Positions 9,972 to 48,780 of a DNA stretch of 64,000 bases are shown here, in pieces. The notes beneath the pieces were generated by a model. The model did not search any database. It was not told the origin of the DNA and saw only the letters and a list, made by a program, of their open reading frames with translations. The stretch's first letter is position 1; each line of letters opens with the position of its first letter. Source of the DNA: an uncultured Actinomycetes bacterium (GTDB taxonomy: Bacteria; Actinomycetota; UBA4738; HRBIN12). The translations under genes were made by a program, and so were the position numbers. The stretch lies in the NCBI GenBank assembly GCA_963775755.1, contig CAVZKB010000001.1, positions 80,011 through 144,010 on the forward strand, read 5' to 3'.

Positions 9972-10084
9972 GCCAGCGCGGCGAGCGAACGTCCCGCCGG
10001 ATCCGGACCGGATGGCCCCACCATTCCGCCGGGGGAGCCCGACCATAGAGATCACAGCTTCATCGCGAGCGCAAGGAGGTCCCG

Positions 10085-14779: not shown

Positions 14780-14789
14780 AGGGGCAATG

Positions 14790-15290: not shown

Positions 15291-15372
15291 GTGTCGATCG
15301 TCGCAGGCCACGGTGCGCTTCGCCGGGGCCGTTCGACCCGGACACGTCAGGACGGTCGGCCCCCGCCTGACG

Positions 15373-28908: not shown

Positions 28909-29922
28909 GTGCCGGTGCGCGATCCCGCCTTCACGGTCGCGTCGGGCGCCGCGGCTACCATGGGCGACATGGCGCGCATGTTCGTCGAGGGATGGGCCCC
29001 CGAGTACGGGGCGCCGTTCGATCCGGACGAGCAGCTGGCGCCCGCCGAGGGAACCATCGATGCGACCGTCGAGCTGATGGACTGGGAGCCCCTCGAGGGC
29101 GCCGATGACGGCGCCGATCGGATCGCGTTCGTCGACGGCGTGCGCCGCGTGGACGCCCGCCTCCTGATGGACGACCCAGCCGGTGGCCCGATCCCCGGGA
29201 TCTGCGGGACGTTCGCGGTGGGCGCGACCCTTTGGCACCGGACGCAGCGCCGGTCCGAGATCACGAGCGTCCGGGTCGAACGGTGGGCGGTCCTGGCGGG
29301 CGGCCGCGTCGAAGAGCTGCCGGCTGTTGACCTGGATCCGCCGTACCGCTCCACGACCACGCCGTCAGACGATCCTTCGCATCTGATGACGGAGCTCCAC
29401 ACCCGGATGCGCCGAGCGGAGGGCGAGCTGGCGACGCAACTCGCCGACGGCGCGTTCGTGGTCGCCGACGGTCCGCTCAACAAGCCGCTCGCGCCGCTGC
29501 CGGTCGTCGGCTATATCAAGAGCCATCGCGTGACGTACCTGCCGCTCGAGCAGAACGCCGTCGTCGCCGAGCTCGCCCGTGGACAACGCACGCCGTTGTT
29601 CACGATCTCGGCCGATCGGCCCGACGTGTCTCGCTACTCGTGGTACGTGCGCCTCGCGATGTTGCGCGGCGGCCACTCGTGGACCGGCATCGTCCGGTGC
29701 GAGGCCTCGGGCCGCCTGCCGACGGACGAGGTCCGCGTGATCGCCGACCGCACCGCGGCGCTCCTGCCGATCGTGGGCTCGGAGCCGCACATCGATCCCC
29801 GCGCACCGCAGAACCTGGTGCCGATCGGCGCGCTCGAGCGCGAGCTGCGTCATCGCATGGGCGACCAGGGCTTGGTCTATCGCGCTCTCCGTCAGGCAGT
29901 CAGTGAGCGCGAGGCATCGTAG
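28909..29922 (+). CDS. nurA: NurA-like 5'-3' nuclease (RNase H-like fold)
   Basis: NurA catalytic motifs IAFVDGVRR and FVVADGPL (hhxDGS pattern), about 330 aa, located immediately upstream of HerA-like ATPase. Confidence 0.6.
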   Translation: MPVRDPAFTVASGAAATMGDMARMFVEGWAPEYGAPFDPDEQLAPAEGTIDATVELMDWEPLEGADDGADRIAFVDGVRRVDARLLMDDPAGGPIPGICGTFAVGATLWHRTQRRSEITSVRVERWAVLAGGRVEELPAVDLDPPYRSTTTPSDDPSHLMTELHTRMRRAEGELATQLADGAFVVADGPLNKPLAPLPVVGYIKSHRVTYLPLEQNAVVAELARGQRTPLFTISADRPDVSRYSWYVRLAMLRGGHSWTGIVRCEASGRLPTDEVRVIADRTAALLPIVGSEPHIDPRAPQNLVPIGALERELRHRMGDQGLVYRALRQAVSEREAS

Positions 29923-30275
29923 AGATCACCTCGGCCCTCGCTCATCCGATTTCCCAGCATCGTCCGGGTGTGCATACGGCTCGTGCACGACGGTCCACTA
30001 CAAGTCGGCCACCCGGGCTCACATCGAGTCGTTGGGATACGACATCGTGGCCAATTCGGCGACCAGTTCAGCGACCTGGTCGGCGGGTTCGCGACCGCAC
30101 GTTCAAGATGCCCAACCCGAACTACTTCCTGCCCTAGACGGTCCACGGTCGAGCGCTCCCCGGGGCTCTGCGGACGAACGCGGGTCCGCAGCCCGGGGGC
30201 GTCCGACGGCGCGGCTACGATACGCCCCATGGGGTGGTGCACGATCGTCGTGGGGTTCATCGACGAGGACGACCG

Positions 30276-32012
30276 ATGACCGGCGACGGCGTCGGACGGG
30301 TCCTCGGCTCGGAGCACTCGAACACCAGCGAGTTCCGCGTGGTGCTCGACGACGACGAGTACCTCCAGCTCGACGACCTCATCGTGGTGCGGACCCAGGT
30401 CCCGAAAGCGGGCGAGGTCGCCACATACGGCGTCGTGACCGAGGCCGAATCGGTCTACGAGGGCGCCTCGTATGAGTCCGACACGCATCGGGTCGCCGAG
30501 CTCGGCATCATGCCCGCCGCGAAGGTCCGTTCCGCGCGCGTGGCCGTGACCCGCGTCGATCCCGAGATCTGGGTCTCGCCAGATCCGGGCGAGGTCGTGC
30601 AACGCGCCACCGGCGAGGAACGCTCGAAGGCGCTGTACCTGGACGAGATGGGCAGGCCGCTCCCGATCGGGATCGGTCGCGACGGCGAGCCGGTCTCCGT
30701 CGACCTCGACTTCTTCGACGGCCGCAAGGGCGGCCACATGTCGATCAGCGGCATCAGCGGCGTCGCGACCAAGACGTCGTTCGCCCTGTTCTTCCTGCGG
30801 ATGCTCACCGGGCATCCGGGCGTGGTCGGCGAGGGCGCGTCCAACCTCCGCGTGCTGGTGTTCAACGTGAAGGGCGAAGACCTCCTGTGGCTGGATAAGC
30901 CCAACCGGTCCTTCGACGACGAGGCCGCGGCCGGCTGGGCGGTGCTCGGCGTCGAGCCCGGACCGTTCCCGTCTGTGCGGTTCTGGGCGCCGCCCAGGAG
31001 ACGTTCCGGCGACGTCGTCGTGCCCGACACCGGCGGGCGGCAGGAGGGTGTCGACGTCTTCAGCTGGACGCCTCGCGAGTTCGTCGACGAAGACTGCCTG
31101 CAGTTCCTGTTCACCGATGCGAACGACTCGAAGAACCAGATCCCGTTCGTCCGCGAACGCGTGCAGTCGCAGTTGAAGCGGTTCTCCGTCGACGTCGTGG
31201 GGATGCCTGGTGCGGTCGTGCTCCGCGACCCGCGCGACGCGCCCGACGGGAGCTGGCGTGGTCAGCAGGTCCAGGCGCAGCCCGGCGAGCGGATCGTCAC
31301 CGACCTGCTCACGCTCGTCGGCGCGCTCGGCGAGTTCCTGGAGCCCGAGGACGGCTCGGAGCCGGACTGGGCGTGGAGCGGGCGCGTCATGGGCGGCACG
31401 ATCTCCGCGTTCATGCGAAGGCTGCACGCCGGCGCCGCACGGATGGGCCAGTTGGTCAGGGCCGGCGAGAGCCGCCGCATCGATCGTTCGAAGGCGAGCG
31501 TGACGGTCGTCGCGATCCAGTCGTTGCACGATCAGGCACAGCGGTTCGTGGTCGGTGCGCTGCTGAACGAGGCGTTCCGCGAGAAGGACGAGTCCGGGCA
31601 GCGCCTGCCCCTGTCGGTCGTCGTGCTGGACGAGCTCAACAAGTACGCCCCGCGCGAAGGCACCGGTCCCCTGAAGGACATGCTCGTCGACATCGCGCAA
31701 CGCGGGCGGTCGCTCGGGATCCTGCTCGTCGGCGCGCAGCAGACGGCCTCGCGCGTGGCATCCGAGGTCTTGGAGAACGCCGCCATCCGCGTGAGCGGCC
31801 GCCTGGACGCCGCCGAGGCCGAGCGCGCCGAATACGGCTGGATGCTTCCCTCCACACGCGCTCGAGCCCGGCTGTTGAAGCCCGGAACCATGGTCGTGTC
31901 GCAGCCGGCGATCCCCGTGCCGCTCGTCGTGACGTTCCCGTTCCCGCCGTGGGCCACCAGGAAGGAGGAAGTGGCGACGGACGCCGACGGCGATCCGTTC
32001 GCGGGGCTGTGA
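30276..32012 (+). CDS. herA: HerA-like FtsK/HerA-superfamily hexameric ATPase/helicase; start ATG 30276
   Basis: N-terminal HAS-barrel (GRVLGSEHSNTSEFRVVLDDDEYLQLDDLIVV), central P-loop region (HMSISGISGVATKTS, atypical), Walker B VVVLDELNKY, C-terminal arm. Confidence 0.6.
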   Translation: MTGDGVGRVLGSEHSNTSEFRVVLDDDEYLQLDDLIVVRTQVPKAGEVATYGVVTEAESVYEGASYESDTHRVAELGIMPAAKVRSARVAVTRVDPEIWVSPDPGEVVQRATGEERSKALYLDEMGRPLPIGIGRDGEPVSVDLDFFDGRKGGHMSISGISGVATKTSFALFFLRMLTGHPGVVGEGASNLRVLVFNVKGEDLLWLDKPNRSFDDEAAAGWAVLGVEPGPFPSVRFWAPPRRRSGDVVVPDTGGRQEGVDVFSWTPREFVDEDCLQFLFTDANDSKNQIPFVRERVQSQLKRFSVDVVGMPGAVVLRDPRDAPDGSWRGQQVQAQPGERIVTDLLTLVGALGEFLEPEDGSEPDWAWSGRVMGGTISAFMRRLHAGAARMGQLVRAGESRRIDRSKASVTVVAIQSLHDQAQRFVVGALLNEAFREKDESGQRLPLSVVVLDELNKYAPREGTGPLKDMLVDIAQRGRSLGILLVGAQQTASRVASEVLENAAIRVSGRLDAAEAERAEYGWMLPSTRARARLLKPGTMVVSQPAIPVPLVVTFPFPPWATRKEEVATDADGDPFAGL

Positions 32013-32046
32013 GCGCGAACGCAGCCGTGCGCCGCTCTCCCCCGAG

Positions 32047-33216
32047 ATGAAGATCCTCCACACGTCGGACTGGCACATCGGCAAGAGGCTCGGCCGTCAC
32101 GAGCGGATGGACGAGTTCCACGATGTCCTCGCAGAGGTCGAAGGCATCGCCGACGAGCACCGCGTGGACCTGGTCATCGTCTCCGGCGACGTGTGGGATC
32201 GGCCCGTCCCACCGACGGATGCGCTCGCCCTCGGCCTCCAGACGCTCCTGCGCCTGGCGGTGCGCCGCCCGGTGATCGCCGTGGCCGGGAACCACGACTC
32301 CCCGGAGTTCTTCGAGGCGCTCGCGCCGCTGCTGCGCCCCCTCGGGGTCCACTTGGTCGGCAACGTGTATCGCCCCGACGACGGTGGGATCATCGGACCC
32401 GACGAGCTCGGTGGTCTCCCGGTGGTCGTCGCGTGTTTCCCGTTCCTGCGGGAGGGACGGGTGGTCGACTTCATGAAGGACGCCGGCGAGTGGTACCGGG
32501 GGTACGCGGATCGCATCGCGGCGATCACCGGCCACTACAACGAGGAGCTCGTCAAGCGCGCAGGCGCCGACCTGGTGCCGATCCTCGTCGCGCATTTCCT
32601 CGTGAACGGTGTGAAGGTCGACCGCGAGGCCCCGCGCGGGGAGCGCGAGCTCCACATGGGAGATGCGTACGCCGCGACCCCGCAGGCCATCCCGGCAGGT
32701 CCTCAGTACGTGGCGATGGGACACATCCACGCGCCGCAGCGGGTGCCGGGCTCACCGGTGCCCGCGGAGTACGCGGGCTCGTTGTTGGCGCTCGACTTCG
32801 GAGAGGCCGGGGAGCAGAAGCGGGTCGTGCTCCTCGACGCCGAACCGGGACGGCTCGCGGTCGCGGAGAGCGTGCCTCTTCGGAGCGGGCGCCGGCTCGT
32901 TCGGGTCAACGACACGTGGGACGCGATCGAGGCGCGCGCCGACGAGCTCGCGGGGGCGTTCCTCGATCTCACCGTGAAGACGAGTGGCACGGATATGTCG
33001 CTCGCGGAGCGGGCGCACGAGACGTTCCCGTTCCTGGTCCGGGTACGCGCGCAACGACCCCTCGGTGCCGATCGCGAGCGGCTCGCGAAGGGCCATCGTT
33101 CGTGGGAGGAGCTGTACGCGGAGTACTACCGGCGCGAGCATGACGAGGACGCTCCCGGCGATCTGTTGACCCTCTTCCGCGAGGTGCTCGAGGAGGCCAC
33201 CGATGCGACCGCTTGA
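32047..33216 (+). CDS. sbcD: SbcD / Mre11-family DNA-end nuclease (calcineurin-like phosphoesterase)
   Basis: MKILHTSDWHIG, …IVSGDVWD…, …AGNHD…, …GHIHAPQ… metallophosphatase motifs I-V. Confidence 0.85.
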   Translation: MKILHTSDWHIGKRLGRHERMDEFHDVLAEVEGIADEHRVDLVIVSGDVWDRPVPPTDALALGLQTLLRLAVRRPVIAVAGNHDSPEFFEALAPLLRPLGVHLVGNVYRPDDGGIIGPDELGGLPVVVACFPFLREGRVVDFMKDAGEWYRGYADRIAAITGHYNEELVKRAGADLVPILVAHFLVNGVKVDREAPRGERELHMGDAYAATPQAIPAGPQYVAMGHIHAPQRVPGSPVPAEYAGSLLALDFGEAGEQKRVVLLDAEPGRLAVAESVPLRSGRRLVRVNDTWDAIEARADELAGAFLDLTVKTSGTDMSLAERAHETFPFLVRVRAQRPLGADRERLAKGHRSWEELYAEYYRREHDEDAPGDLLTLFREVLEEATDATA

Positions 33217-35740
33217 GCTGACCCTGGAGGGGTTCCGCTCGTATCGCGAGCGGGTGACGTTCGACTGGCGCGGCCGGCGGCTGGTGGGGATCGTGGGCCC
33301 GATCGGCTCCGGGAAGTCGTCGATCCTGGACGCGGTCTCGTTCGCGCTCTACGGCAAGACCCCGCAGGTGGAGAGCGCCACGAAGTCACTGATCCACCAG
33401 CTGGCCGAGCAATCGCACGTCGAGCTGCGGTTCCAAGTGGACGGCCAGGTCTGGCGAGCGGTGCGATCGCTCCGCCGCAAGGGCGCGTCCGGCCATCAGC
33501 TTTCGCTGCTCGCAGACGACACGCCGGATGCGGCGACGCTCGAGGTCGTCACGCTCGAAGGTCCGATGAACGAGCGCATCGAGCAGCTGCTCGGCATGGA
33601 CTTCAAGACGTTCTGCCGCTCCGTGCTCCTGGCACAGAACCGCTTCGCCGAGTTCCTCAAGGCGACGCCCACGCAGCGGGACGCGGTCCTGAAAGGGGTG
33701 TTCGGGTTCGAGCGGCTCGACGACGCGCTCCGCGTGGCCCGGTGGCACCTGGAGCGAGCCGATCTGGAGCTCGCGTCCCTGCAGAAGGAGCGCGAGCGCG
33801 TGGACGAGGCGCGCATCGAGCTCGGCCAGGCTCGCGAGGCGGCGGAGACCACCCGCGCCCGATCGACCGCGCTCGAAGCCGCTGGACCCGAGGTCGAGCG
33901 GCTCGAGAAGGAGCGCGACGCCGCCGCGGGAGAGGCCGAGACCTCGGCCGCTCGGATCGGCGCGTTGACCGAGATCGCGGGGGGGCTGCCGTCGGAGGCG
34001 GACGTTCGTTCCGTGGTCGAGTCCGCGCTCGAGGCGGGAACCAGGATCGCCGCAGCCAAAGCGGCCGCCGATGACGCGGAGCGGGACAGGCGGGCACGTG
34101 AGGCCGAGCTGGCCGACGTGGCATCGCGTCTGGGCGACCGCGAGCGCTTCCGTTCGTTCGAACATCTGGTGCAGACCCACGAGCGGCAGGTCGAAGCGGT
34201 GCAGGCCACCGGTGTCGAGGTGGAACGCATGGACGAGGAGCTCGCCTCCGCGCGCGCCTCGCTGGAAGAACGGTCGGCGGCGGGCAAAGACGCCGAGGAC
34301 GCGCTCGACGCCGCCGACCGAGCCCTGGCCGGCGCCCTGGTCGCCGTCGAAGATGCGCGGAAGGCGTTGATGGACGCCGCGCATGCGGAGATGGCGCACG
34401 AGCTCCGTTCGACGCTCATCGCCGGCGAGCCGTGCCCGGTCTGCCGGCAAGAGGTCCATGCCGTTCCCAGGGCCGGGGCCGCGCCCAAGGTCGCGGCCGC
34501 GCGGAAGGCGCTCACCAAGGCGGAGAAGGTCGAGGCGACCGTTCGGGCCGACAAGGAGCGGTGCGCATCGACCGGAGCGTCGATGCGCACCGCGATCGCG
34601 GAGGCGGAGAGCCGCATCGGGAAGGCGGAGGCCGACCGAGCCCGGGCGGACACGGCGCGGGCAGCCGTCGAGGCCGACCTCGCCGCCACCAAGAGCCAGC
34701 TGATCGAAGGACTCCACGGAGAGGGTGACTTCCGCTCCCTCTTCGAGGCCCGGCAAGCAGAGCTGACGGCCGCGGAGCGCGCGTTCGAGCAGGCTCGCAC
34801 GGCTCTCGAGCTGACCCGCGCGGGAGTCGAGGAGGCGGAGCACCTCGCCGAGGGAGCGGGCGAGGCGATCGCCGCGATCGCCAACCGGTTCTCGGGACTC
34901 TGGGGACGTCTCGACGAGGATCGAGACGTCCCGCGGGACCCCGACGCGATCACGGCGTCGTTCTCGGAGCTCCGAGCGACGATCGTCGCGCGCCACGACG
35001 AAGCGGTCGCGACGCGCGAGACGGCGAGCGCCAGGGTCGACGAGGCGAACGAGGCGCGCTCCGCCCTGCTGGCAACGGTCGGACTCGCTCCCGCCGACGA
35101 TTTCCGGCGGGCGCTCGCGGAAAGCGCCATGGCCCACGGGACGGCGACCGCCCACGTGCAGCAGCTGGAGGAGCGGATCGCATCCGCGAGCGAGCTCGAA
35201 CGCCAGGTGATGGTGTGCGAGGCACGCCGCGCCGTCGCGAAGCGGCTCACCGACGACCTTCAGCCGTCGCGCTTCTTGGGCTTCCTCCTGCGGGAGGAAC
35301 GCGCAGAGCTTGCGGAGCTCGGGAGCGATCACTTCGCAGAGCTGAGCGACGGCGCCTACCGGTTCACCGACGACGATCGCTTCGACATCCTCGACCTGAA
35401 CGCCGCGAGCACGAAGCGGAAGGCCGACTCACTCTCTGGTGGGGAGACGTTCCTGGCGTCGTTGGCGCTCGCCCTCGCGCTGGCGGAGATGGTCGCGCGG
35501 GGTGGTGGTCGGCTCGATTCCTTCTTCTTGGACGAAGGCTTCGGGAGCCTCGACCCCGAGCACCTCGACCGGGCGATGGATGGCATCGGGCGCCTGGTCT
35601 CCGAGAACGAACGCCGCCTCGTCGTGGTCGTCAGCCATGTGGCCGAGATGCGCGAGGCGATCGAAGACCTCATCGTCCTCGAGAAGGACGACGTCACGGG
35701 CGACACGGTGGTTCGATCCGGCGTTGGCCCCGCTGCGTGA
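33203..35740 (+). CDS. sbcC: SbcC / Rad50-family ATPase with coiled coil and zinc hook
   Basis: Walker A GPIGSGKSS, long coiled coil, zinc-hook CPVC, ABC signature LSGGETFLASLALALAL, D-loop FFLDEGFGSLD. Confidence 0.9.
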   Translation: MRPLELTLEGFRSYRERVTFDWRGRRLVGIVGPIGSGKSSILDAVSFALYGKTPQVESATKSLIHQLAEQSHVELRFQVDGQVWRAVRSLRRKGASGHQLSLLADDTPDAATLEVVTLEGPMNERIEQLLGMDFKTFCRSVLLAQNRFAEFLKATPTQRDAVLKGVFGFERLDDALRVARWHLERADLELASLQKERERVDEARIELGQAREAAETTRARSTALEAAGPEVERLEKERDAAAGEAETSAARIGALTEIAGGLPSEADVRSVVESALEAGTRIAAAKAAADDAERDRRAREAELADVASRLGDRERFRSFEHLVQTHERQVEAVQATGVEVERMDEELASARASLEERSAAGKDAEDALDAADRALAGALVAVEDARKALMDAAHAEMAHELRSTLIAGEPCPVCRQEVHAVPRAGAAPKVAAARKALTKAEKVEATVRADKERCASTGASMRTAIAEAESRIGKAEADRARADTARAAVEADLAATKSQLIEGLHGEGDFRSLFEARQAELTAAERAFEQARTALELTRAGVEEAEHLAEGAGEAIAAIANRFSGLWGRLDEDRDVPRDPDAITASFSELRATIVARHDEAVATRETASARVDEANEARSALLATVGLAPADDFRRALAESAMAHGTATAHVQQLEERIASASELERQVMVCEARRAVAKRLTDDLQPSRFLGFLLREERAELAELGSDHFAELSDGAYRFTDDDRFDILDLNAASTKRKADSLSGGETFLASLALALALAEMVARGGGRLDSFFLDEGFGSLDPEHLDRAMDGIGRLVSENERRLVVVVSHVAEMREAIEDLIVLEKDDVTGDTVVRSGVGPAA

Positions 35741-35902
35741 GGGGTCCGGTCGGCGTTTGCGCGCGCGCAGTCTCGAACTACCAGGTATGGGGTACGACCA
35801 AAGACCTACCTGATTCCGACCATATCCCTCCCGCGACCGACTACGGGTTGCCCCGATAGGGACCGATACAACCCTGGAGGGCCCATTCGCACAAGGGGAA
35901 CG

Positions 35903-38900
35903 ATGGCCGGCCAGAGAAGCATCTACCGTATCGCCCGGACGCTGCTGCTCGCGTTGGCAGCGCTCTTGGCTGTTGGCGCGGTCGGCTCCATGTTCCTCGG
36001 TTCCCGTGCGGTCAGCCAGGCGAAAGCATCCGCGGTCGACCAAGCGCGAACCATCGTCGATAACTCGTTGCCGCTGACGTTGTCACCCGGCGACGTCGGC
36101 TCCCCCGCCACCGACGCGAAGGCTGATCTGATCACCGCCAAGATCACGCCGGTCATCCTGGATCCCAGCGCGTGGGATGACGTCGCGATCTGGTCGCTCG
36201 ACGGCCAGATCGTCTATTCGACCGATCGCTCACTGATCGGACAACGGCCGGAGGAAGCCCGCACCAGCGTGCGCGACGCGACCGAGCGCGGGATCACCTC
36301 TTCCGAACAGAACGACGGCATGTTCTCGGTCCTCATCCCCCTTCGCTTCCGGACCGACGGGCCCGTCAGTGCCGCGATCCAGATGGCGCGGCCCGACGAC
36401 CTGATCGCCGCCGCCGGCCGGCCCTGGCGCTACAACGCGATCCTCATGACGACCGGCCTGATCATCACGCTCCTCGTCCTGTACCGGGTGATGCGGCTCA
36501 CCGCGTCGGCCAGCGCCAACCTGAGCTTCACGCCCTCCACGCGGGACCGCGTCGCTCCCATCCCGATCGGTGTGGGCCAGCGTTCGATCGAGGCGTCCGC
36601 GCCCGGGCTCCGCGAGGAGGCCGACGCGCGGAAGAAGGCGGAGGACCGCGCCGTCGCGGCCGAGGAGCGCTTGAAGGTGATCCAGGATCAGTACCGCAAG
36701 ACCCTCGAGGAACTGCACGTCACGCAGCGCGTCCTCCAGGAGCGTCCGGTCCCGAGCGGGACCGACCCGGAGATCGAGGCACGGCTCCTGAAGGCCGAAG
36801 GCAACGCCACGCTGCTCGAGACGCAGTTGAATGCGATGAGCACGGAACGGGACAGGCTCGCTCGACACATCGCCGAACAGGCCAAGGCCAAGGTCGACAA
36901 GGCCGACCCGGAGCTCGATCGCAAGACCCGTCAGGTCGAGCAGGAGGCGATCGGGCTGCGGGCAGAGCTCGAGGGAGCGCAGACGGAGCTCTCGGTGACG
37001 CGCCGTGAGCTGGATGCGCTGAAGGCGCAGGCCGCTCATGCGCAGGAGATCCAGCAAGATCTCGACAACGCGCATGTCGAGGCGCTCCATGCTCGTGAGG
37101 CGGCGGAGACCGCGGAGAGTGAGTTGGCGCGCGCAACCGCCGAACTTAGCGACGTCCACAACGAGCTCCGAGCGCTGCGGACCGAGGAGCAGAAGGCGAG
37201 CGTCTTCGGCGAGGAGCTCCGTGCCGCGCGCGCCGAGATCGAGAGCCTCAAGGCGTCGCACAGCGCCGACCTGATCGAACGCGAGGCCGAGCTGGAGACC
37301 CGCGTCCGCACGGCCCGGGAGGAGTTCCAAGCGCAGCTGGGGCAGACCGAAGCCAGGGCGCAGCGCGAGCTGGCGGATCGCGAAGAGGCGTTGACCAAGG
37401 AAGCCGCGTCGGCCGTCGGAGAGCTGCGCCAGGCGGCCGCCGAGCGCGAGGCAGAGCTGCAGACCAAGCTCGCCGAGCGAGAGGCCGAGCTGCAACATCG
37501 GCTCGCCGAGCGAGAGTCCGAGCTGCAGGAACAGATCTCCGAGCAGGCCGCACTGCTCGAGCAGCGGCTCGCCCAGCGGGAAGCGGAGCTCACGGCACGC
37601 GTCGCCGAGGTCGAAGGTGCGGCGGATACGACGAAGAACCAGCTCGGGACGGCCAACGCCGAGCTCGAGACGTTGCGGGGCGAACTGCAGGCCGCCAAGG
37701 ACGAGATCGAAGCGTTCACCCACGACGGGTCATCCCGCAACGAACAGGTCGCGAAGGCGAACGAGGAACTGGTCCGGTCCCGAACCGAGATCGAGACGCT
37801 CCAGCAGGAGCTCGCCGAGATCCAGCGCGGTCGTGAGGCGGCCGAGACCAAGCTGCAGAACGCGACGCGCGAGCGTGAGGCGCTCGAGCGTGAGCTGGCG
37901 GCGGCCAGCGCGGAAGTCCAGGCGGAGCTCGCGCGGGGCGTCGAGCTGTCGACGAAGGCCGAGATCGCGGAGGAGGAGCTTCGGGCGGCACGAGAGGCGG
38001 CGTCCGGTGCCGAGGACGACCTGCGAGCGGTCCGCGCCGAGAAGGAGAGCCTTGCCGCAGCGTTCGAAGAGGCCAAGGCTCGTCATGCCGCCGAGATCGC
38101 CACGGCGGCCGCGAAGCCCGACCTCGAAGAGGTCCTGCGAGCGAGCCAGGAACGGCTGGCCAGCCAGACCGAGAAGCTCATCGAGGTCGAGGAGCGCGCG
38201 CACTCCGCCGAGCGGCAGTTCGCCGATTCGGTCGTCCGGCTCGAAGAGGTAGAGGCCGAGCTGCGTCACCTCCAGATGGAGAAGGCGTTGCACGACCTGC
38301 AGTCCGAGCGCCCGGCCCTGGAATCCGCCACCGCGGTCGACGCGACCATCCCGAACGTGCCGCTCGAGGATCGAAGGGCTTCGAGCCCCTTCACCAAGGA
38401 GCTCGCGCTCGACGCGAAGAAGTCGCTCTCACACATCTTGGGGCTCACGCAGATCATGAAGTACAAGAAGGACTCGAAGGACCAGACGCAGTTGATCAAG
38501 CAGCTGACGGCCGCGGCGCGACGCTTGGACCACACCGTCGCAGACCTGGCCGAGGCCGACTCGCTCGCGCACGGCGTCGTCGACCTGACGATCAAGCGGA
38601 CCGACCTGGAAGCGCTCGTGAAGCGCGTCGTGGACGAGTCCGGCATCGGCTCGGATCACGACGTTCGCATCGACAGCCAGTCACTGGTCGTCGGCGTCGA
38701 CGCGCTCCGCGTCGAACAGGTCCTCGGAGGGATGCTCCGCACGTGCGGCGACCGCACCGCGACGGGCAAGGCCATCACGGTTCGTCTGTCGCCCATGGAT
38801 GGCGGCGCGTTGATCTCGGTCGAGGACCCTGAGCCCTCGTCCGACGGAACGCTCAGCCCCGTCATCACACGGTTCGCCGAGATGCAGGGCGGATGGACCA

Positions 38901-39139
38901 AGATCGAGAGTCGTGACGGTGGTGGCTCGGCGTTCCGCGTGTTCTTGCCCGACGGCGGACCGTCCGGCGAGACCAACGCGTCCGTGGAGGACGACGCGGT
39001 CGAGGAGGACGAGCCGGCCGCCCCAGGCACGCTGCAGATCGTGGTGGCCGAGCCGGAGCAGGAGAGCACCGACGCGTGGAGCGGCTCGGAGGAGCAGCTG
39101 TTCGTGCAGGAGCTGCACCGGCTGCACGCGGAGGACTGA
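35903..39139 (+). CDS. 1078-aa membrane protein: two TM helices flanking a periplasmic domain, roughly 600-aa cytoplasmic coiled coil, C-terminal degenerate histidine-kinase-like DHp/CA domain
   Basis: TM1 LLLALAALLAVGAV, TM2 ILMTTGLIITLLVLY; heptad-rich E/A/R/L region with tandem LAEREAELQ repeats; DHp-like helix LALDAKKSLSHILGLTQIM; CA-like end ...GGSAFRVFLP without clear N/G1 boxes. Confidence 0.55.
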   Translation: MAGQRSIYRIARTLLLALAALLAVGAVGSMFLGSRAVSQAKASAVDQARTIVDNSLPLTLSPGDVGSPATDAKADLITAKITPVILDPSAWDDVAIWSLDGQIVYSTDRSLIGQRPEEARTSVRDATERGITSSEQNDGMFSVLIPLRFRTDGPVSAAIQMARPDDLIAAAGRPWRYNAILMTTGLIITLLVLYRVMRLTASASANLSFTPSTRDRVAPIPIGVGQRSIEASAPGLREEADARKKAEDRAVAAEERLKVIQDQYRKTLEELHVTQRVLQERPVPSGTDPEIEARLLKAEGNATLLETQLNAMSTERDRLARHIAEQAKAKVDKADPELDRKTRQVEQEAIGLRAELEGAQTELSVTRRELDALKAQAAHAQEIQQDLDNAHVEALHAREAAETAESELARATAELSDVHNELRALRTEEQKASVFGEELRAARAEIESLKASHSADLIEREAELETRVRTAREEFQAQLGQTEARAQRELADREEALTKEAASAVGELRQAAAEREAELQTKLAEREAELQHRLAERESELQEQISEQAALLEQRLAQREAELTARVAEVEGAADTTKNQLGTANAELETLRGELQAAKDEIEAFTHDGSSRNEQVAKANEELVRSRTEIETLQQELAEIQRGREAAETKLQNATREREALERELAAASAEVQAELARGVELSTKAEIAEEELRAAREAASGAEDDLRAVRAEKESLAAAFEEAKARHAAEIATAAAKPDLEEVLRASQERLASQTEKLIEVEERAHSAERQFADSVVRLEEVEAELRHLQMEKALHDLQSERPALESATAVDATIPNVPLEDRRASSPFTKELALDAKKSLSHILGLTQIMKYKKDSKDQTQLIKQLTAAARRLDHTVADLAEADSLAHGVVDLTIKRTDLEALVKRVVDESGIGSDHDVRIDSQSLVVGVDALRVEQVLGGMLRTCGDRTATGKAITVRLSPMDGGALISVEDPEPSSDGTLSPVITRFAEMQGGWTKIESRDGGGSAFRVFLPDGGPSGETNASVEDDAVEEDEPAAPGTLQIVVAEPEQESTDAWSGSEEQLFVQELHRLHAED
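37437..37601 (+). repeat. 33-nt (11-aa LAEREAELQxx) tandem repeats x3-4 inside the coiled-coil gene
   Basis: gccgagcg(c)gag(g)c(a)gagctgca...ctc repeated head-to-tail at 37437, 37470, 37503 and a diverged copy at 37569. Confidence 0.6.
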
Positions 39140-39157
39140 ACACCCCGCCTTACGTCG

Positions 39158-40318
39158 CTAGTCCAAGAGCTTCAGGAGCTCCCGCGATATCACCAGCCGT
39201 TGGATCTGGTTCGTGCCTTCGTAGATCTGGGTGATCTTCGCGTCGCGCATGAACCGTTCCGCGGGGTACTCCCGGACGTAGCCGTACCCCCCCAGGACCT
39301 GCACGGCATCCGTCGTGACCGCCATGGCCGCATCCGAAGCGAAGCACTTCGCGACGCTCGAGTGGAACGGCATCCGCGGGTCGCCCGCGTCGCACGCCGC
39401 GAGCGCCCGATACGTGAGCACCCGCGCCGCCTCGACCTTCATCGCCATGTCCGCGAGCATGAACTTGATCCCCTCGAAGTCGACGATCCGCTCGCCGAAC
39501 TGCTTGCGTTCGCTCCCGTACGCGAGCGCGAGGTCGAGCGCTCCTTGCGCGATCCCCACGGCCTGTGCCGCGATCACCGGACGAGAGTGATCCAGTGTCC
39601 GCATCGCGATCGAGAACCCTTCCCCTTCCTCGCCAACCATCCGATCCATCGGGATGCGACACGCGTCGAGGATCACCTCACGCGTGGGCGAACCCTTGAT
39701 TCCCATCTTCTTCTCCGGCTTGCCGAACGAGACGCCGGGGTCCTCGCGCATCACGAGGAACGCCGAGACGCCTTTCGCGCGAAGCGCCGGATCCCGGGTC
39801 GCGAACACCAGGTACGCATGTGACACCCCGGCGCCCGTGATGAAGCGTTTGGTCCCGTTCAGCACGACATGGTCGCCGTCGCGTTCGTACCGCGTGGTCA
39901 TGGCGGCGGCGTCGGAGCCCGCGCCGGCTTCGGTGAGCGCGTACGACATCAGGATGTCGCCGCGGCAGATGCCCTGCGTCATGGATCGTCGTTGTTCGTC
40001 GGTGCCGGCCAGCATCAGCGGGATCACGCCGAGCTTCGAAACGATCGGCGTCAGCGACACACCGGCGGACACGCGCGAGAGCTCCTCGATGAACACGCCG
40101 AACGCGAGCGCGCCGCCGCCAGACCCGCCGTCAGCCTCGGGGTATCCGACACCCATCAGATCGTTGTCGACGAGGACCTGGTAGACGTCCTCGGGCCATT
40201 CGTCGGTCTCGTCGATCTCGGCGGCCCGAGGCCCGATCCTCTCCTCGGCGATGCGCCGGACGAGCGAGCGGAACTCCTCCAGCTCTTCCGGCAGCTCGTA
40301 GCGTCGGTCGTCCATCAC
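39158..40318 (-). CDS. acyl-CoA dehydrogenase
   Basis: ACAD N/M/C domains, catalytic glutamate region …YEGTNQIQRLVISRELL. Confidence 0.9.
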   Translation of the reverse strand: MMDDRRYELPEELEEFRSLVRRIAEERIGPRAAEIDETDEWPEDVYQVLVDNDLMGVGYPEADGGSGGGALAFGVFIEELSRVSAGVSLTPIVSKLGVIPLMLAGTDEQRRSMTQGICRGDILMSYALTEAGAGSDAAAMTTRYERDGDHVVLNGTKRFITGAGVSHAYLVFATRDPALRAKGVSAFLVMREDPGVSFGKPEKKMGIKGSPTREVILDACRIPMDRMVGEEGEGFSIAMRTLDHSRPVIAAQAVGIAQGALDLALAYGSERKQFGERIVDFEGIKFMLADMAMKVEAARVLTYRALAACDAGDPRMPFHSSVAKCFASDAAMAVTTDAVQVLGGYGYVREYPAERFMRDAKITQIYEGTNQIQRLVISRELLKLLD

Positions 40319-42039: not shown

Positions 42040-43941
42040 TCAGTTGCGGTTGGCGAGCGCCTTCCCGATGACGTCCGCGATCTCGTCGCGGACGAGTTCG
42101 TCCCGTTCGATCAGCGCGTCGCGGAGCGCGGCGTGCACGTCCAGGTTCTCCTCGAGGACCTCACGGACGAGGGCGCGCTGCGCCTCCAAGATGTCTTCCA
42201 CACGTTGTTTCCCGTCGCCGTCGCCCAGGACCTTGGCGACCAGGTTCGTCTGGCTGACCGCGCCTTGTGCGATCGCCTCGTAGCTGATCAGCGAACCGGC
42301 CATGCCGAACGAGCCGACCATCTGTGCCGCGAGGCCGGTCGCGTACGCGAGGTCGGACGCCGGTCCGGTGCCGCTCTCCCCCAGGCAGAGCTCCTCGGCC
42401 ACCAGCCCGCCCAGCGCGATCGCGATCCCGGACTCGACCTCGGAGCGCGTGCGAGTGAAGTGCTCCTCCTCGTCGCCGTGCGCGAGCAGGCCGAGCGAGT
42501 CCCTCCGCTTGATGATCGACAGCACCTCCAGCCGGCGCCCCTTGCCCAGGAAATGCGCCACGGTCGCGTGCCCGGCCTCGTGCGTGGCGACCGCCGCACG
42601 ATCGACGTCGGTGTAGACCACCGGCTGCTTGATGCCGATCTCGTCGGTGAGCTTGGCCTCGTACACGTCGTCGAGCGTCATCGACTTCCGGCCGTCCCGG
42701 AGCGCGATCAGCAACGACTCGTCGAAGAGGTGCTCGAGCATGACTGGCGTGTACCCGAACGTGTCGTGGGACAGACGGTCCCGGACGGACGGCTCGTCCA
42801 TCTGGGGCTCATGCGCCTTGCGCCGCATGAAGAATTCGATCAGGTCGAGCCTGCCCTGCTTGCTCGGCAGGTCGAAGTAGAGGCGACGGTCGAACCGTCC
42901 CGGTCGCAGGAGCGCGGAGTCGAGGGTGTCGGCGCGGTTCGTGGCCGCGATCAACAGGATGTTGTTGTACGCGGGCTTCCCCGCCTTGAGCCGGTTCTCC
43001 GGCGGCAGGTAGGTGTTGATCCACGCCACCACACGGCTCCGGACGCGCTCGAGCCGGGGCGGCTGATCGAACGACTGCATCTGGATGAGGAGCTCGTTCA
43101 CCATGCCGCCGGTGCCGCTCGAGATGGAGTTCGACACCGTACGCGAGAGGCCGTTGAAGATGCCGCCGGGAGCGGGCGTCATCCCGAAGGTGTCACGCGA
43201 CCCGCCGATCGCGTCGATCTCCTCGATGAAGCCGATCGCGCCCCCTTCCTTGCGCGCCGCCTTCCGCAAGGCCTTGAAGAACCCGCGGATGCGCGAAGCC
43301 GTCCCACCGAACCACATCGACTGCGTCGCCGACGCCGACATGAACAGGAACGGCACGCCCGCCTGCTTGGCCATCGCTTTCGCGAGATACGTCTTGCCGG
43401 TCCCCGGCGGCCCTTCGAACAAGATGCCCCGTCGCGGCGTCCCGCCCAGTTCCTCGCGGAACGTCGCGTACCCCAGGAACACGTCGAGCGAGCGCAGGAC
43501 CTCATCGACCTGACCGTCGAGGCCGCTGATCTCCGTCAGACCCACCTCGACCTGCTCCGGGTGGATCATCAGGTGCGGCGAGCGACCCGAGAGCATCGGG
43601 ATCAGCATCATCACCCCGAGCAGACCGACGATGATGAAGAGCGGGAGGAACGCCACCATGTCGGGCGGGATGGTGGGGAGCCGCAGCGGGTTGTGCGTCG
43701 CGAGCCGATACCACAGGTAGGCATCGAACACCGCGATCGCGATGAACGCCCGCACGACCTTGCGCCGTCTCGTCCGCTCGCGCTGTCGGAACACGTCTGC
43801 GCGTCCTCGCTTGAGGAGCAACGATCCTTCAAGATGCGCCTCGACCGACGCTTTCTGGGTCTCGTTCACGCGTCCCACTCCTCGATCCCTCGCCGTGGCA
43901 TCCGCGAGACTAGGCGCCAAAACTACACCCAAAGACATCAC
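42040..43941 (-). CDS. FtsH-like membrane AAA+ zinc metalloprotease paralog
   Basis: TM segment, Walker A GPPGTGKT, Walker B-like IGFIEEID (D to E), second region of homology, HEAGH zinc site. Confidence 0.75.
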   Translation of the reverse strand: MMSLGVVLAPSLADATARDRGVGRVNETQKASVEAHLEGSLLLKRGRADVFRQRERTRRRKVVRAFIAIAVFDAYLWYRLATHNPLRLPTIPPDMVAFLPLFIIVGLLGVMMLIPMLSGRSPHLMIHPEQVEVGLTEISGLDGQVDEVLRSLDVFLGYATFREELGGTPRRGILFEGPPGTGKTYLAKAMAKQAGVPFLFMSASATQSMWFGGTASRIRGFFKALRKAARKEGGAIGFIEEIDAIGGSRDTFGMTPAPGGIFNGLSRTVSNSISSGTGGMVNELLIQMQSFDQPPRLERVRSRVVAWINTYLPPENRLKAGKPAYNNILLIAATNRADTLDSALLRPGRFDRRLYFDLPSKQGRLDLIEFFMRRKAHEPQMDEPSVRDRLSHDTFGYTPVMLEHLFDESLLIALRDGRKSMTLDDVYEAKLTDEIGIKQPVVYTDVDRAAVATHEAGHATVAHFLGKGRRLEVLSIIKRRDSLGLLAHGDEEEHFTRTRSEVESGIAIALGGLVAEELCLGESGTGPASDLAYATGLAAQMVGSFGMAGSLISYEAIAQGAVSQTNLVAKVLGDGDGKQRVEDILEAQRALVREVLEENLDVHAALRDALIERDELVRDEIADVIGKALANRN

Positions 43942-46165: not shown

Positions 46166-47080
46166 CTACATATCGGGGCGATCGGGCGAGCCGTCCGGGG
46201 CCGGAGGCAACGCCGAGCCGCCCCCGAAGCCGCGACCGGTGAAGCCGGCGGGACCTGAGCCTCGACCGCCTCTGCGAGGACGGAACGACGAGTTCATGTC
46301 CTCGACGCTGAACGCCCCGGACGCCTCACCCGTGGTCGCGTAGCGGTACAGCGCCGCGTTGAACACGCCGGAGCACGCCGCCCCGGCCGCCATCAACACA
46401 CCGATCGCGAGGACCAGGATCGGCACGCCCAGGACCGGAACGGCCGCCGTGATCAGCGCTCCGACCAGCACGACGGGGATCGAGACCAGGAAGAAGGCGA
46501 GCCCGATCGTCGCCTGCCCGATGAACTGCTCGCCCCACCGCTGGCGGAAGATCGCCGCCGAGCGCCTGATCGAATCGCCGACGCCGACGGGCTCGAAGAG
46601 CAGGACGGGAACGACGAAGTAGGTCAGCACGTTCCACGCGATCCCGACGATGCCGAGCAGGATGCGGCCGACGACCCCCGAGCGCTCCTGGATCGTCCGC
46701 AGGATCATGCCGACGGTCGCGGTGACCACCGCCCAGACGAAGATCTTGCCGATGTGCTGCCGGGCGAGCGCGAGACCGTCCGAGATCTTGGCGTCCTGAC
46801 CTTGCAGGCGCTTCATCGCGGTGCCGATCACGGCCGCATTGAAGAAGATCGTCACGAACGCGAGCACCACGTACATCACGAAACCGATCGCGTAGATCCC
46901 GGGACTCAATGACTGGCCCTTCGCCGGCAGCCCGATCCCCCACATGCCCAGTCCGAAGACCGTCATCACGACCAGCGAGCAGAAGAACGAGATGACGGGG
47001 AGCACCAGCAGCTCCCGATCCTGCTTGACGACCGTCCAACTGGCCTTCGCCAGGCGGAACCCGCGCGAGACAGACCCCAT
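46166..47080 (-). CDS. polytopic membrane protein of unknown function with Gly/Arg-rich C-terminal tail
   Basis: 6-7 predicted TM helices; C-terminus RRGGRGSGPAGFTGRGFGGGS. Confidence 0.5.
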   Translation of the reverse strand: MGSVSRGFRLAKASWTVVKQDRELLVLPVISFFCSLVVMTVFGLGMWGIGLPAKGQSLSPGIYAIGFVMYVVLAFVTIFFNAAVIGTAMKRLQGQDAKISDGLALARQHIGKIFVWAVVTATVGMILRTIQERSGVVGRILLGIVGIAWNVLTYFVVPVLLFEPVGVGDSIRRSAAIFRQRWGEQFIGQATIGLAFFLVSIPVVLVGALITAAVPVLGVPILVLAIGVLMAAGAACSGVFNAALYRYATTGEASGAFSVEDMNSSFRPRRGGRGSGPAGFTGRGFGGGSALPPAPDGSPDRPDM

Positions 47081-47149: not shown

Positions 47150-48070
47150 CTATGCGGGCGAGATCTGCGCGACCGGACAGACGTCGGCCCGTGGGCACCA
47201 GCCGCAGTACACGCCGGGGGTGAGCTCCGCCTCGCGACCGTTCCACAGGGCGGCCGCAGCCCGGGCGGCAGCGATCACGCGATCGGCCGCGTGCTGCAAG
47301 CCCTGCTCGCCGACATCTTCCGACTGCCACTCACCGCTCTCGAGGAACAGCGACGCCACGCGATAAGGCGGGACGCCGAACCGAAGCGTCAGTAACAACG
47401 CGTAGTAGCGGAGATCCTCGGGGTACTCGGGGTAGGCGTTGCCCGTCTTCAGATCGATCGCCAAGCGCGTGGCGCGGGTCGGCTCCAACCGGTCGGGCGC
47501 GCCGAGCACCAGGTCGATCCGGCCGGAGAGGATGAGCGCGCCGCCCAGCAGCTCGGCTCTCACCGGCATCTCCGAGATCGGCGTCAGCTCACGGCGGAGC
47601 TCCTTCAGCGGCGGGAAGGATCCCTGGAACATGGTGATGCGCCGCGTCACCTCCATCAGCACGTCGTCGCGGTCGGTCGGCGCCAGGCCGTTCCAGTACT
47701 CGGCGAACCGCTCCTCGCGCTCCACCAGACGGTCGGCGGCGATCTCGGCGATCTCGTGCGCGCCGAGCCCGTCGCGCGCGCCAACCTCGACCTCCACCGC
47801 CCGGTGCAGCAGCACGCCGGCGGCGCTCTTCGGCGAATGCTCGAACGGCGGTGCCTCGCCCGAGATCGCCGATGCGAACTTGCCCTCGCATCGCCCGTGA
47901 TCGGTGAGCTTCTCCTTGCCGAGCCAAAGGGTGTCGCGGAGCTCGAGCTCGCGGACGGCTTCCTCGATGCGATCCCGCAGGCGCTGCGCGAGGTCGGCGG
48001 GGAACGTGGGGCGGGGGTCGGTGCCGATCAGCTGCTCGAGCGTGCGCCGCTGCGGGTCGGTGAGCTCCAC
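47150..48070 (-). CDS. PD-(D/E)xK nuclease with Cas4/AddB-type 4-Cys iron-sulfur motif (RecB-family exonuclease-like); start (GTG 48070) uncertain
   Basis: N-terminal Cys DHGRCEG, catalytic GRIDLV / IDLKTGN / YYALLL, C-terminal CGWCPRADVC. Confidence 0.55.
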   Translation of the reverse strand: MELTDPQRRTLEQLIGTDPRPTFPADLAQRLRDRIEEAVRELELRDTLWLGKEKLTDHGRCEGKFASAISGEAPPFEHSPKSAAGVLLHRAVEVEVGARDGLGAHEIAEIAADRLVEREERFAEYWNGLAPTDRDDVLMEVTRRITMFQGSFPPLKELRRELTPISEMPVRAELLGGALILSGRIDLVLGAPDRLEPTRATRLAIDLKTGNAYPEYPEDLRYYALLLTLRFGVPPYRVASLFLESGEWQSEDVGEQGLQHAADRVIAAARAAAALWNGREAELTPGVYCGWCPRADVCPVAQISPA

Positions 48071-48097
48071 CCGTGCATGGTAGGGATAGGAACCGAC

Positions 48098-48649
48098 ATG
48101 GCCGAGACCCCCGACGAGATCCTCCGCGCATTGGCCGACCCCGAGCGGCTGGCGATCGCCGGTGCCCTGGCGCAGCAGCCGCGGACGGCCGCGACCCTCG
48201 CGACGGACCTCGAGTTGCAGCTCACGCGGGTCCGCAAGCACCTGAACCGCCTGACGACCACCGGCGTCGTGCGTCTGGAGGCCGACCGTCGCACGTACCG
48301 GCTCGACCCCGAGACGCTCCGGTGGGCCGCCGAGCAGGTAGGGCCGCCGCGCGATGCCGGACTCGCGCTCGGCGCCGCGAACGACGACGAGGAGACGGTT
48401 CTGCGCACGTTCTTCCGCGACGGACGCCTGACCGAGATCCCCGCGAAGGAGGCGAAGCGCCGGATCGTTCTCGAGCGGATCGCGGTCGAGTTCGAGCCGG
48501 GCGTCCGCTACGACGAGAAAGAGGTCAACGCCATCGTCGGGCGGTTCTTCAACGACTACGCGTCCCTCCGCCGCTACCTGATCGATGCCGGATTGCTCGC
48601 GCGCGAGCACGGCGAGTACTGGCGAACCGGCGGACGGGTGGACGACTAA
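48098..48649 (+). CDS. ArsR-like HTH fused to DUF2087-like domain regulator
   Basis: ILRALADPERLAIAGALAQQPRTAATLATDLELQLTRVRKHLNRL HTH; C-terminal …RIVLERIAVEFEPGVRYDEKEVNAIVGRFFNDYASLRRYLIDAGLL…. Confidence 0.6.
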   Translation: MAETPDEILRALADPERLAIAGALAQQPRTAATLATDLELQLTRVRKHLNRLTTTGVVRLEADRRTYRLDPETLRWAAEQVGPPRDAGLALGAANDDEETVLRTFFRDGRLTEIPAKEAKRRIVLERIAVEFEPGVRYDEKEVNAIVGRFFNDYASLRRYLIDAGLLAREHGEYWRTGGRVDD

Positions 48650-48780
48650 CGCCTGGCGAACACCTGTTCGGCCAGGGCTCGACGTTGGGGTATGACCGGT
48701 GCTACGTTCGGGGTCACCGCGACGCGGCCCCCTTCCCCCTTCCCCTGCAGTTGATGCTGCCGCGTCCCGATACGAAAGAG

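Follow-up and report, generated by a model that had tools for sequence, protein, structure and literature searches.

Results and discussion

Layout of the locus

We describe here a gene, which we call CCHK (for coiled-coil histidine-kinase-like pseudokinase), found in a 64,000-nucleotide stretch of DNA from an uncultured Actinomycetes bacterium (assembly GCA_963775755.1, contig CAVZKB010000001.1, positions 80,011 to 144,010 of the forward strand); this whole stretch is referred to below as the window, and positions are counted from its first nucleotide. CCHK lies directly downstream of sbcC, the last gene of a nurA-herA-sbcD-sbcC cluster. Its product runs from a first transmembrane (TM) segment through an outside domain of predicted sCache/PDC-like type, a second TM segment, a disordered linker, a coiled coil of ~565 residues, and a second disordered linker to a head made of DHp and CA-like domains, which is followed by an acidic tail and, at the very C-terminus, a conserved helix (Table 1).

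Both the 1078-residue open reading frame (ORF) and its place directly behind sbcC had been noted in an initial reading made from the sequence without database searches (hereafter the sequence-only reading), and both hold. The sCache/PDC-like type of the outside domain, the promoter motif, and the conserved C-terminal peptide do not figure in that reading. The ORF is a real gene: it opens with an ATG codon, and its GC fractions at the three codon positions (0.72/0.47/0.86) match coding sequence in a window of 69% GC. The AGGGG purine-rich block of the ribosome-binding site is also kept ahead of the start codon in relatives of CCHK. Large antisense ORFs that overlap the gene were set aside as common high-GC artefacts. 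In the window, sbcC and CCHK share a reading frame, with one stop codon (35738-35740) and an open intergenic stretch of 162 nt between them; the two frames differ in relatives (e.g. locus L001), and read-through from sbcC into CCHK is therefore rejected, the shared frame being a coincidence.

Table 1. CCHK, its parts, and the promoter and cluster genes beside it, in window positions (aa, amino acids; AF2, AlphaFold model; pLDDT, predicted local distance difference test).
Feature	Position	Strand	Basis or remark
nurA (5'-3' nuclease), first cluster gene	28909..29922	+	PDB 7f6d_H (Deinococcus NurA), E=4.4e-25
herA (hexameric helicase/translocase)	30234..32012	+	PDB 7f6d_B (HerA), E=2.7e-119
sbcD/mre11-type nuclease	32047..33216	+	TIGR00619, 150.9 bits vs 77.65 cutoff; Pfam Metallophos
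sbcC/rad50-type ATPase	33203..35740	+	TIGR00618, E=4e-61; Pfam AAA_23, SMC_N, SbcC_Walker_B; CPVC hook motif in translation
Positional homolog of family promoter: TACG (35842-35845), 16-nt spacer, ACCGATAC (35862-35869)	35842..35869	+	Position, comparison with relatives
Ribosome-binding site AAGGGGA	35893..35899	+	Read from sequence
CCHK, complete coding sequence, 1078 aa	35903..39139	+	ATG start
TM1, aa 6-34, after basic N-tail (net charge +2)	35918..36004	+	Kyte-Doolittle; AF2 helix 4-54
sCache/PDC-like extracytoplasmic domain (predicted), aa 35-177	36005..36433	+	AF2 pLDDT >90; Foldseek
TM2, aa 178-199	36434..36499	+	Kyte-Doolittle, AF2
Juxtamembrane disordered linker, aa 200-233	36500..36601	+	AF2 pLDDT <50 at aa 213-233
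Coiled-coil rod, aa 234-800	36602..38302	+	Composition, heptad occupancy, AF2, conservation
33-bp tandem repeat encoding 11-aa AELQxxLAERE repeats	37420..37544	+	Tandem Repeats Finder: period 33, ~3.2 copies, 75-81% matches
Disordered linker, rod to DHp, aa 801-824	38303..38374	+	AF2 pLDDT <50 at aa 803-824 (model residues 34-55)
DHp (HisKA-type) helical hairpin, aa 825-895	38375..38587	+	Profile match to HK853, AF2, Foldseek
CA-like (Bergerat-fold) domain, aa 896-1018	38588..38956	+	Profile, AF2, Foldseek; length 123-124 aa
Acidic disordered variable tail, aa 1019-1055	38957..39067	+	Identity 0.19, length 14-54 aa
Conserved C-terminal peptide W..(E)Q(L/M)(F/L)VQELHRL..AED, aa 1056-1078	39068..39136	+	Family conservation

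The kinase-like head

Scanned on its own against Pfam and NCBIfam, CCHK gave a sub-threshold HATPase_c match (E=0.11; 13.4 bits against a cutoff of 26.4), no HisKA match, and otherwise generic SMC-like coiled-coil matches, and a single-sequence phmmer search reached the Thermotoga kinase HK853 at E=4e-4. An alignment-based profile was needed, and the resulting family profile (A1; 35 sequences, residues 770-1022) matched HK853 at E=1.6e-13, with His260 of HK853 aligned to Leu836 of CCHK (H-box segments NISHELRTPL and ELALDAKKSL, respectively). Structure prediction agrees, with an AF2 model of the head region (pLDDT 84.5) that has the DHp and CA folds and for which the top Foldseek matches are DivL (4q20, E=7e-13), which the family profile also matches, and complexes of HK853 (E~1e-12). 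The proposal of the sequence-only reading that the C-terminus is a degenerate histidine kinase, with a DHp helix and a CA fold, is borne out.

The degeneracy extends to every catalytic motif, as seen in column counts from an alignment of 116 family members. Leu836 (codon at 38408-38410) stands at the phospho-His position, where the family has L74, V15, H11, I4, F4, and R3; Asp837 is kept, and Lys840 takes the place of the phosphatase T/N residue, a position filled by Lys or Arg in all 116 members (K95/R21). The N box lacks its Mg/ATP-binding Asn (GMLRTCGDRT in CCHK; G(L/M)LR.sgdRT in the family), the G1 box (DxGxG) is replaced by VEDPEPS, within a segment VEDPEPSSD..SLSPV that spans G1 through G2, and every member, those with His836 included, has a deletion of ~25 residues that takes in the F and G2 boxes (the ATP lid). 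The lack of clear N and G1 boxes was thus correctly spotted from the sequence, with the F and G2 boxes gone as well. Where Pfam HATPase_c is matched in relatives, ~85 residues align onto 109 profile positions; a few relatives marginally exceed Pfam gathering thresholds, and two that keep the His pass HisKA. The DHp loop carries a basic hairpin, KYKKDSKDQ.

The same reading had offered the His of an LSHILG segment as a candidate phospho-acceptor, which does not hold up: this residue, His844, is off register, eight residues downstream of the canonical position, and is not conserved (H38/R34/Q28/K16). We also looked at whether CCHK could be a kinase of unusual type that is still active, or a phosphotransfer protein, with another residue such as His844 in use or with phosphorylation in trans, and consider this very unlikely. 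His844 is present in the window protein, and 11 of the 116 members have His at 836, among them the two that pass the HisKA threshold, yet column 844 is mixed, no member, His836 keepers included, has the Asn, the G1, F, or G2 box, or the ATP lid, and the phosphatase position is basic throughout.

Searching 1.84 billion representative sequences with A1 recovered a compact family, with ~50 representatives below E=1e-50; a sister clade, likewise without the lid (ALSMDAKRS...VEDGxP); and, from ~1e-30, canonical kinases with intact AVSHDLRTPL, NLLANAARHT, and DDGPGV...GVGIGL motifs. With canonical kinases next beyond the sister clade and its own motifs lost, the CCHK family therefore derives from ordinary HisKA kinases and appears to be a bona fide pseudokinase. 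On these sequence comparisons, we regard it as very probable that CCHK acts without phosphotransfer. The suggestion that it might be a pseudokinase, already made in the sequence-only reading, is strengthened both by the loss of the catalytic motifs and by the head being the most conserved part of the protein.

Family and conservation

A search of a collection of 5.8 billion proteins returned 336 CCHK homologs; at 37-100% identity, nearly all of the best 120 span the full length. Every carrier found belongs to uncultured soil Actinomycetota; when a cultured carrier was sought via the sister clade (P0184), the 27 proteins found were all from metagenomes. Conservation is very uneven along the protein. 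Mean pairwise identity is 0.69 in the DHp, always 71 residues long, and 0.67 in the CA-like domain, and falls to 0.19-0.23 in the linkers and the acidic tail, whose lengths vary; the last 60 residues of CCHK carry a net charge of -16. This pattern indicates that purifying selection is strongest on the dead head, the helix at residues 234-280, and the C-terminal peptide.

Only 2 of the 116 aligned sequences, P0037 (locus L012) and P0046 (locus L077), look frameshifted in the CA region, through either rare decay or errors in metagenome-assembled genomes. At L012, synteny is disrupted downstream as well. Together with the below-threshold Pfam scores of the query, the two sequences are what can be said for CCHK being a decaying pseudogene or a GC-rich annotation artefact. 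That explanation is refuted by the abundance of full-length homologs and by the strong conservation of the very head that is degenerate, and the coding-type codon-position GC and high-confidence AF2 folds also speak against it, leaving it with next to no probability. A gene split or truncated in close relatives, which the sequence-only reading had named as a sign of decay, is likewise not what the family shows.

The family is uncharacterized and, at threshold, absent from Pfam and NCBIfam. We found no paper on it or on a coiled-coil histidine kinase pseudokinase, DivL and PsmA being the only analogs that our literature searches turned up, and the combination of a Cache sensor, a ~565-residue rod, and a dead kinase appeared neither in these two databases nor among the papers searched.

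The coiled-coil rod and its linkers

Residues 236-800 consist of 19% Ala, 19% Glu, 11% Leu, and 10% Arg, and their heptad a/d occupancy is 0.60, against 0.46 +/- 0.015 in shuffled sequences. Prolines occur there only at 282, 284, 289, 336, and 739, and break the rod at Pro282-289, Pro336, and Pro739. The 11-residue AELQxxLAERE repeats number ~5 copies at the protein level (residues 517-571). A coiled coil of ~600 residues with 11-residue repeats had been read from the sequence as uninterrupted; the great length and the repeats stand, while the continuity does not, given the Pro breaks and the disordered linkers at both ends.

Within the family, the first cytoplasmic helix (residues 234-280) is well conserved (identity 0.69; 44-47 residues), whereas the center of the rod (residues 501-700) is variable both in sequence (identity 0.25) and in length (100-222 residues). 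The same is true of the juxtamembrane linker (identity 0.20; 27-50 residues) and of the linker between rod and DHp (identity 0.23; 17-34 residues). Floppy, length-variable linkers at both rod ends argue against HAMP- or S-helix-style signaling and against mechanical transmission, and fit a tether. The long stretch between TM2 and the DHp to which the sequence-only reading pointed is thus not a continuous signaling helix, and the idea of a mechanosensor is not supported, as no finding speaks for it and the flexible linkers argue against it.

Membrane module and possible receiver partners

CCHK has exactly two hydrophobic segments (Kyte-Doolittle at least 1.6), the predicted TM1 and TM2, in agreement with the two TM helices around a domain of ~150 residues that had been described from the sequence. 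The AF2 model of residues 1-300 (pLDDT 84.9 overall, and >90 for the outside domain of ~143 residues) consists of a long TM1 helix, a domain of helix and five strands, TM2, disorder at residues 213-233, and a helix at residues 236-280. Foldseek matched the outside domain, with probability 1.0 in each case, to WalK (4ywz/7dud; E~1e-4, TM-score 0.62-0.65 as normalized on the target), CitA (1p0z), and KinD (4jgo). The long N-terminal helix, five-stranded antiparallel sheet, and flanking helices, placed between two TM segments, are as predicted by AF2 and Foldseek those of an sCache/PDC-like fold of the sensor-kinase type. Sequence searches gave less: Pfam sCache_3_2 was matched below threshold in the relative P0048 only (E=4e-4; 20.8 bits against a cutoff of 28.4), the Pfam Cache families gave no match to CCHK itself, and an N-terminal family profile (A2) found nothing significant among PDB sequences. 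Across the family, the domain keeps a length of 141-143 residues, with a mean pairwise identity of 0.48.

The only receiver domain in the window, at 14114-14779 (-), lies 21 kb from CCHK, and none is adjacent, as the sequence-only reading had also stated. It belongs to a complete ordinary two-component pair at 14114-16515 (-), made of a GAF-HisKA_3-HATPase_c kinase (15373-16515) and a NarL-type regulator (14114-14779), which is unrelated to CCHK. A diguanylate cyclase (GGDEF) protein of ~280 residues recurs in the wider neighborhood of CCHK genes (window 9135-9971 (+); L086, 877-1722; L089, 2680-3519). In L086 and L089 it has a clear receiver domain; in the window copy, the receiver-like match is no more than weak (NarL, phmmer E=0.0012).

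A sensor-kinase fold outside the membrane raises the question of whether CCHK could be a genuine transmembrane transducer, in which a ligand of the sCache domain would change the shape of the rod, or its oligomeric state, and thereby how tightly the head binds a receiver partner, in DivL-like forward or reverse signaling with no phosphate involved. The conservation and strictly fixed length of the outside domain suit such a mechanism, as do a nearly invariant DHp helix 1 and hairpin, which form the response-regulator docking site in HK853, and the receiver-GGDEF proteins of the wider neighborhood. Two disordered, length-variable linkers and a two-fold variation in rod length, however, make helix-rotation or piston coupling unlikely, and with neither a HAMP domain nor an S-helix, and no receiver gene next door, we judge a transducer to be unlikely.

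The neighboring DNA-end-processing cluster

The genes upstream of CCHK encode a full set of DNA-end-processing proteins, of which HerA and NurA are silent in Pfam and were named through PDB matches. A HerA-Mre11-Rad50-NurA end-resection cluster has been described in archaea (PMC3326311; PMC2288612), and the nurA-herA-sbcD-sbcC genes of the window are its bacterial counterpart in an actinobacterial lineage. We compared loci from the family (79 from species-representative genomes, plus further contigs) over 10 kb on either side of the gene and classified them by tblastn. The cluster is adjacent to CCHK in 84 of 84 informative loci and also in L089 and L090, giving 86 in total; the five loci in which it is missing have flanks of less than 3 kb.

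Adjacency persists across two kinds of cluster and several orientations. Type 1, as in the window, has a Deinococcus-like HerA, and type 2 has a DUF87/archaeal-like HerA and an SbcC less than 30% identical to that of type 1, so that the two are non-orthologous. Type 1 lies upstream of CCHK in co-directional (65 loci) or divergent (4 loci) orientation, and type 2 lies either upstream and divergent (12 loci, plus L090) or, in the sister clade, downstream and convergent (3 loci, plus L089). The two versions occupy the same chromosomal spot (window 28909-35740 (+); L013, L021, L084, L086, and L090), which looks like displacement in situ. Synteny extends over the wider region (aconitase, 4HBT, ..., thiolase, FtsH-like) in every relative.

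The tie to DNA-repair neighbors that had been floated in the sequence-only reading gains support from the completeness of the cluster and its presence next to CCHK in every informative relative. A literature search found no membrane or coiled-coil partner of bacterial HerA-NurA-SbcCD. On gene-neighborhood evidence, we hold functional coupling of CCHK to the DNA-end-processing cluster to be plausible but rather less likely than not.

CCHK was also considered as a component of an anti-phage defense system with SMC/HerA-type ATPases at its core, and SbcC and HerA do match the PADLOC models mad3, LmuB, and mad8. These matches are generic and far weaker than those to SbcC (4e-61) and Deinococcus HerA (3e-119), no significant PADLOC match was obtained for CCHK in a scan of five genes, and the locus is chromosomal and syntenic across the whole lineage rather than patchy. 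With only generic SMC/HerA similarity in PADLOC, a defense system is therefore rejected as highly improbable.

Several other genes recur around CCHK. A thiolase gene and an FtsH-like gene are its constant neighbors on the far side in main-family loci that reach far enough; in the window, the latter (42040-43941 (-)) encodes a 633-residue FtsH-like AAA and M41 protease protein, matched in two stretches and scoring 281 bits against an NCBIfam FtsH cutoff of 600. Further along, the order of genes for a 576-residue PD-(D/E)XK nuclease-domain protein (47150-48880 (-)) and a DUF6159 protein (46166-47080 (-)) is kept in L001, L002, and L004; the former adds a second gene of nuclease type to the stretch of conserved synteny. 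Sub-lineages also have recurring Pfam-silent genes, namely a 491-residue gene between nurA and the CCHK homolog (L084, 8276-9751 (-)) and genes of ~262 residues upstream (L002, 2612-3400 (+); L086, 9028-9816 (+)).

The promoter region

The gap ahead of the gene measures 120-200 nt in the family and holds a shared motif, gaCTGAA-N16-GCCGATAAc, 40-100 nt before the start codon, which resembles the sigma-28/WhiG type (TGAA-N16-GCCGATAA) and persists in all four cluster arrangements. Its core, CCGATA, is present in plus-strand orientation in the 200 nt ahead of the start codon at 84 of 85 loci, against 0.021 expected. The sigma-28 or WhiG "flagellar" consensus has a -35 element TAAA and a -10 element GCCGATAA (PMC8325347), and that of WhiG2 is T(A/C)AA-N16-GCCGATAA (PMC12871210). 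The criterion used in these papers is a match to T(A/C)AA-N16-GCCGATAA with at most two mismatches, no more than 200 bp from the start codon (PMC8325347; PMC12871210). With a spacer of 15-17 nt (T[AC]AA-N15-17-GCCGATAA), 43 of 85 loci have a match with at most one mismatch, whereas the entire 3.04 Mb contains 48 matches of this quality, 43 of them at these loci; at most two mismatches are found in 70 of 85. We lean toward a promoter of the WhiG/FliA type for the family.

Other signals were scarce. LexA (TCGAAC-N4-GTTCGA) and PafBC (RecA-NDp) boxes gave just four and one weak matches, respectively, upstream of the gene in 85 loci, and such DNA-damage boxes are rejected on these counts. A simple terminator scan of 35500-39500 found none. 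Further conserved blocks lie in the same region (window 35820-35902; in relatives, e.g. L004 at ~9850-10000): ATATCCC(C/T)CC, ~10 nt upstream of the -35 element, and CCACCCACGGAGACCAG, immediately downstream of the -10 element and likely in the 5' untranslated region; neither block has an Rfam match. An Rfam scan of the whole window returned no family, and the conserved 5' blocks are therefore not a known RNA.

WhiG is under cyclic di-GMP (c-di-GMP) control in other Actinomycetota, which makes the recurring GGDEF protein a candidate partner or regulator of CCHK.

Comparison with known systems

The classic histidine-kinase pseudokinase is DivL of Caulobacter crescentus, which is likewise membrane anchored and likewise combines a HisKA-type DHp and a CA fold without the phospho-acceptor His; DivL works by binding partners and not by phosphotransfer. 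Sequence identity between the two is only ~17%, and DivL, an alphaproteobacterial protein, has Tyr at the His position and PAS domains instead of a coiled-coil rod, and is not known to have a Cache outside domain. RetS of Pseudomonas aeruginosa, which the family profile also matches (6dk7, E=7e-7), is a histidine-kinase-fold protein whose output is a protein-protein interaction through the DHp, in a heterodimer formed with GacS. Most kinase motifs are intact in RetS, which also has receiver domains and a different periplasmic domain and is not known to have a coiled-coil rod. TipN, EzrA, and Scy/FilP are membrane-anchored or polar coiled-coil scaffolds with an organizing role and long coils that include non-heptad repeats. 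Their likeness to CCHK is put forward as an analogy, and none of them is known to have a kinase-like head or a Cache outside domain.

Canonical HisKA sensor kinases such as HK853, WalK, CitA, and KinD share with CCHK the order TM, PDC, TM, ..., DHp, CA. CCHK differs from them in having lost all catalytic motifs, in the ~565-residue coil with disordered ends that replaces a HAMP/PAS linker, in the lack of an adjacent cognate response regulator, and in its additional acidic tail and C-terminal peptide.

Within the same phylum, PsmA of Streptomyces venezuelae is a histidine-kinase-derived pseudokinase scaffold that binds DivIVA, in which the H-box His position varies between orthologs and the E/DxxT/N motif and ATP-binding residues are missing (PMC12963549). 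Like CCHK, it descends from a histidine kinase whose catalytic residues are gone, but it is found in the cytoplasm, resembles a hybrid kinase, and includes a receiver domain; it has no TM segment, outside domain, or giant coiled coil, and is restricted to Streptomycetaceae (PMC12963549); no search that we ran detected a sequence relation between PsmA and the CCHK family. The CCHK family is thus analogous to DivL and PsmA and a member of neither.

Proposed function

Taken together, our data suggest that CCHK is a catalytically dead descendant of HisKA kinases that probably works as a membrane-anchored scaffold or adaptor. The protein would dimerize through its coiled coil and DHp, and, given its lost motifs, would be capable of neither autophosphorylation nor dephosphorylation. 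The flexible rod, up to ~80 nm long, would hold the pseudokinase head and the acidic-tail peptide away from the membrane, where CCHK may bind or sequester a partner instead of transferring phosphate, as DivL and PsmA do. Contact could be made by the invariant DHp face with its basic hairpin, the CA-like surface (VEDPEPSSDxSLSPV), and the helix at residues 234-280 and/or the C-terminal peptide, and candidate partners are some part of the neighboring end-resection machine or a protein whose receiver domain would dock on the conserved face of the DHp. Transcription would be driven family-wide by the gene's own sigma-28/WhiG-type promoter, which would place CCHK in a regulon tied to development, motility, or c-di-GMP. 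That the gene always lies beside nurA-herA-sbcD-sbcC suggests that the protein may organize DNA-end processing at the membrane.

A scaffold need not have anything to do with DNA repair. CCHK might instead be a polarity, division, or cytoskeletal landmark in the manner of TipN, EzrA, or Scy, with the dead head recruiting morphogenetic partners as PsmA does DivIVA and the adjacent cluster reflecting no more than inherited synteny. We rate this as possible, if on the unlikely side. A conserved WhiG/FliA-type promoter of its own is typical of developmental and motility regulons, the rod is long and variable in length, PsmA sets a precedent in the phylum, the whole ~20-kb region is syntenic, with thiolase and FtsH-like genes on the other side, and no LexA or PafBC DNA-damage box lies upstream. 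Inherited synteny fits poorly, on the other hand, with a cluster that stays adjacent even where a non-orthologous type (with DUF87-type HerA and an SbcC less than 30% identical) has taken its place, or where it is inverted or lies on the other side of the gene.

Several observations weigh against a scaffold that serves end processing under a WhiG-type promoter. About 10% of family members have His at the canonical position and may retain residual phospho-chemistry in trans. The window's own promoter copy (TACG-N16-ACCGATAC) has four mismatches to the consensus, beyond the limit of two, so that the promoter call is weaker for this genome; no sigma-28, flagellar, or pilus gene occurs within the 64-kb window, and a simple sigma-70 promoter scan of 35500-39500 showed nothing either way. 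A separate promoter for CCHK also counts against simple co-regulation with sbcCD. Finally, as the synteny is region-wide and local inversions and swaps keep neighbors adjacent without selection, the adjacency is weaker evidence than its 100% frequency suggests.

The most specific form of the scaffold reading would make CCHK a lineage-specific fifth component of a HerA-NurA/Mre11-Rad50-type machine, a dead-kinase tether that docks the end-resection complex or its DNA substrate at the envelope and, expressed under a WhiG/c-di-GMP-type sigma factor, couples envelope or developmental state (e.g. desiccation, dormancy, or DNA uptake) to double-strand-break processing. We offer this as a speculative and rather improbable extension.

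Conclusions

To our knowledge, histidine-kinase pseudokinases are known from a handful of cases only, namely DivL, PsmA, and, in part, RetS. The carriers of CCHK found here are all uncultured, which sets a practical limit on work with the family. As a whole, well-conserved family that is without any catalytic motif and in which the dead head is the best conserved part, CCHK would provide a clean natural case of a sensor kinase turned scaffold. If its promoter is indeed of the WhiG type, CCHK would be a new kind of target for the diversifying WhiG regulons of actinobacteria, and if there is a functional reason for its constant place beside nurA-herA-sbcD-sbcC, the archaeal end-resection module would, in its bacterial form, have a first accessory factor linked to the membrane.

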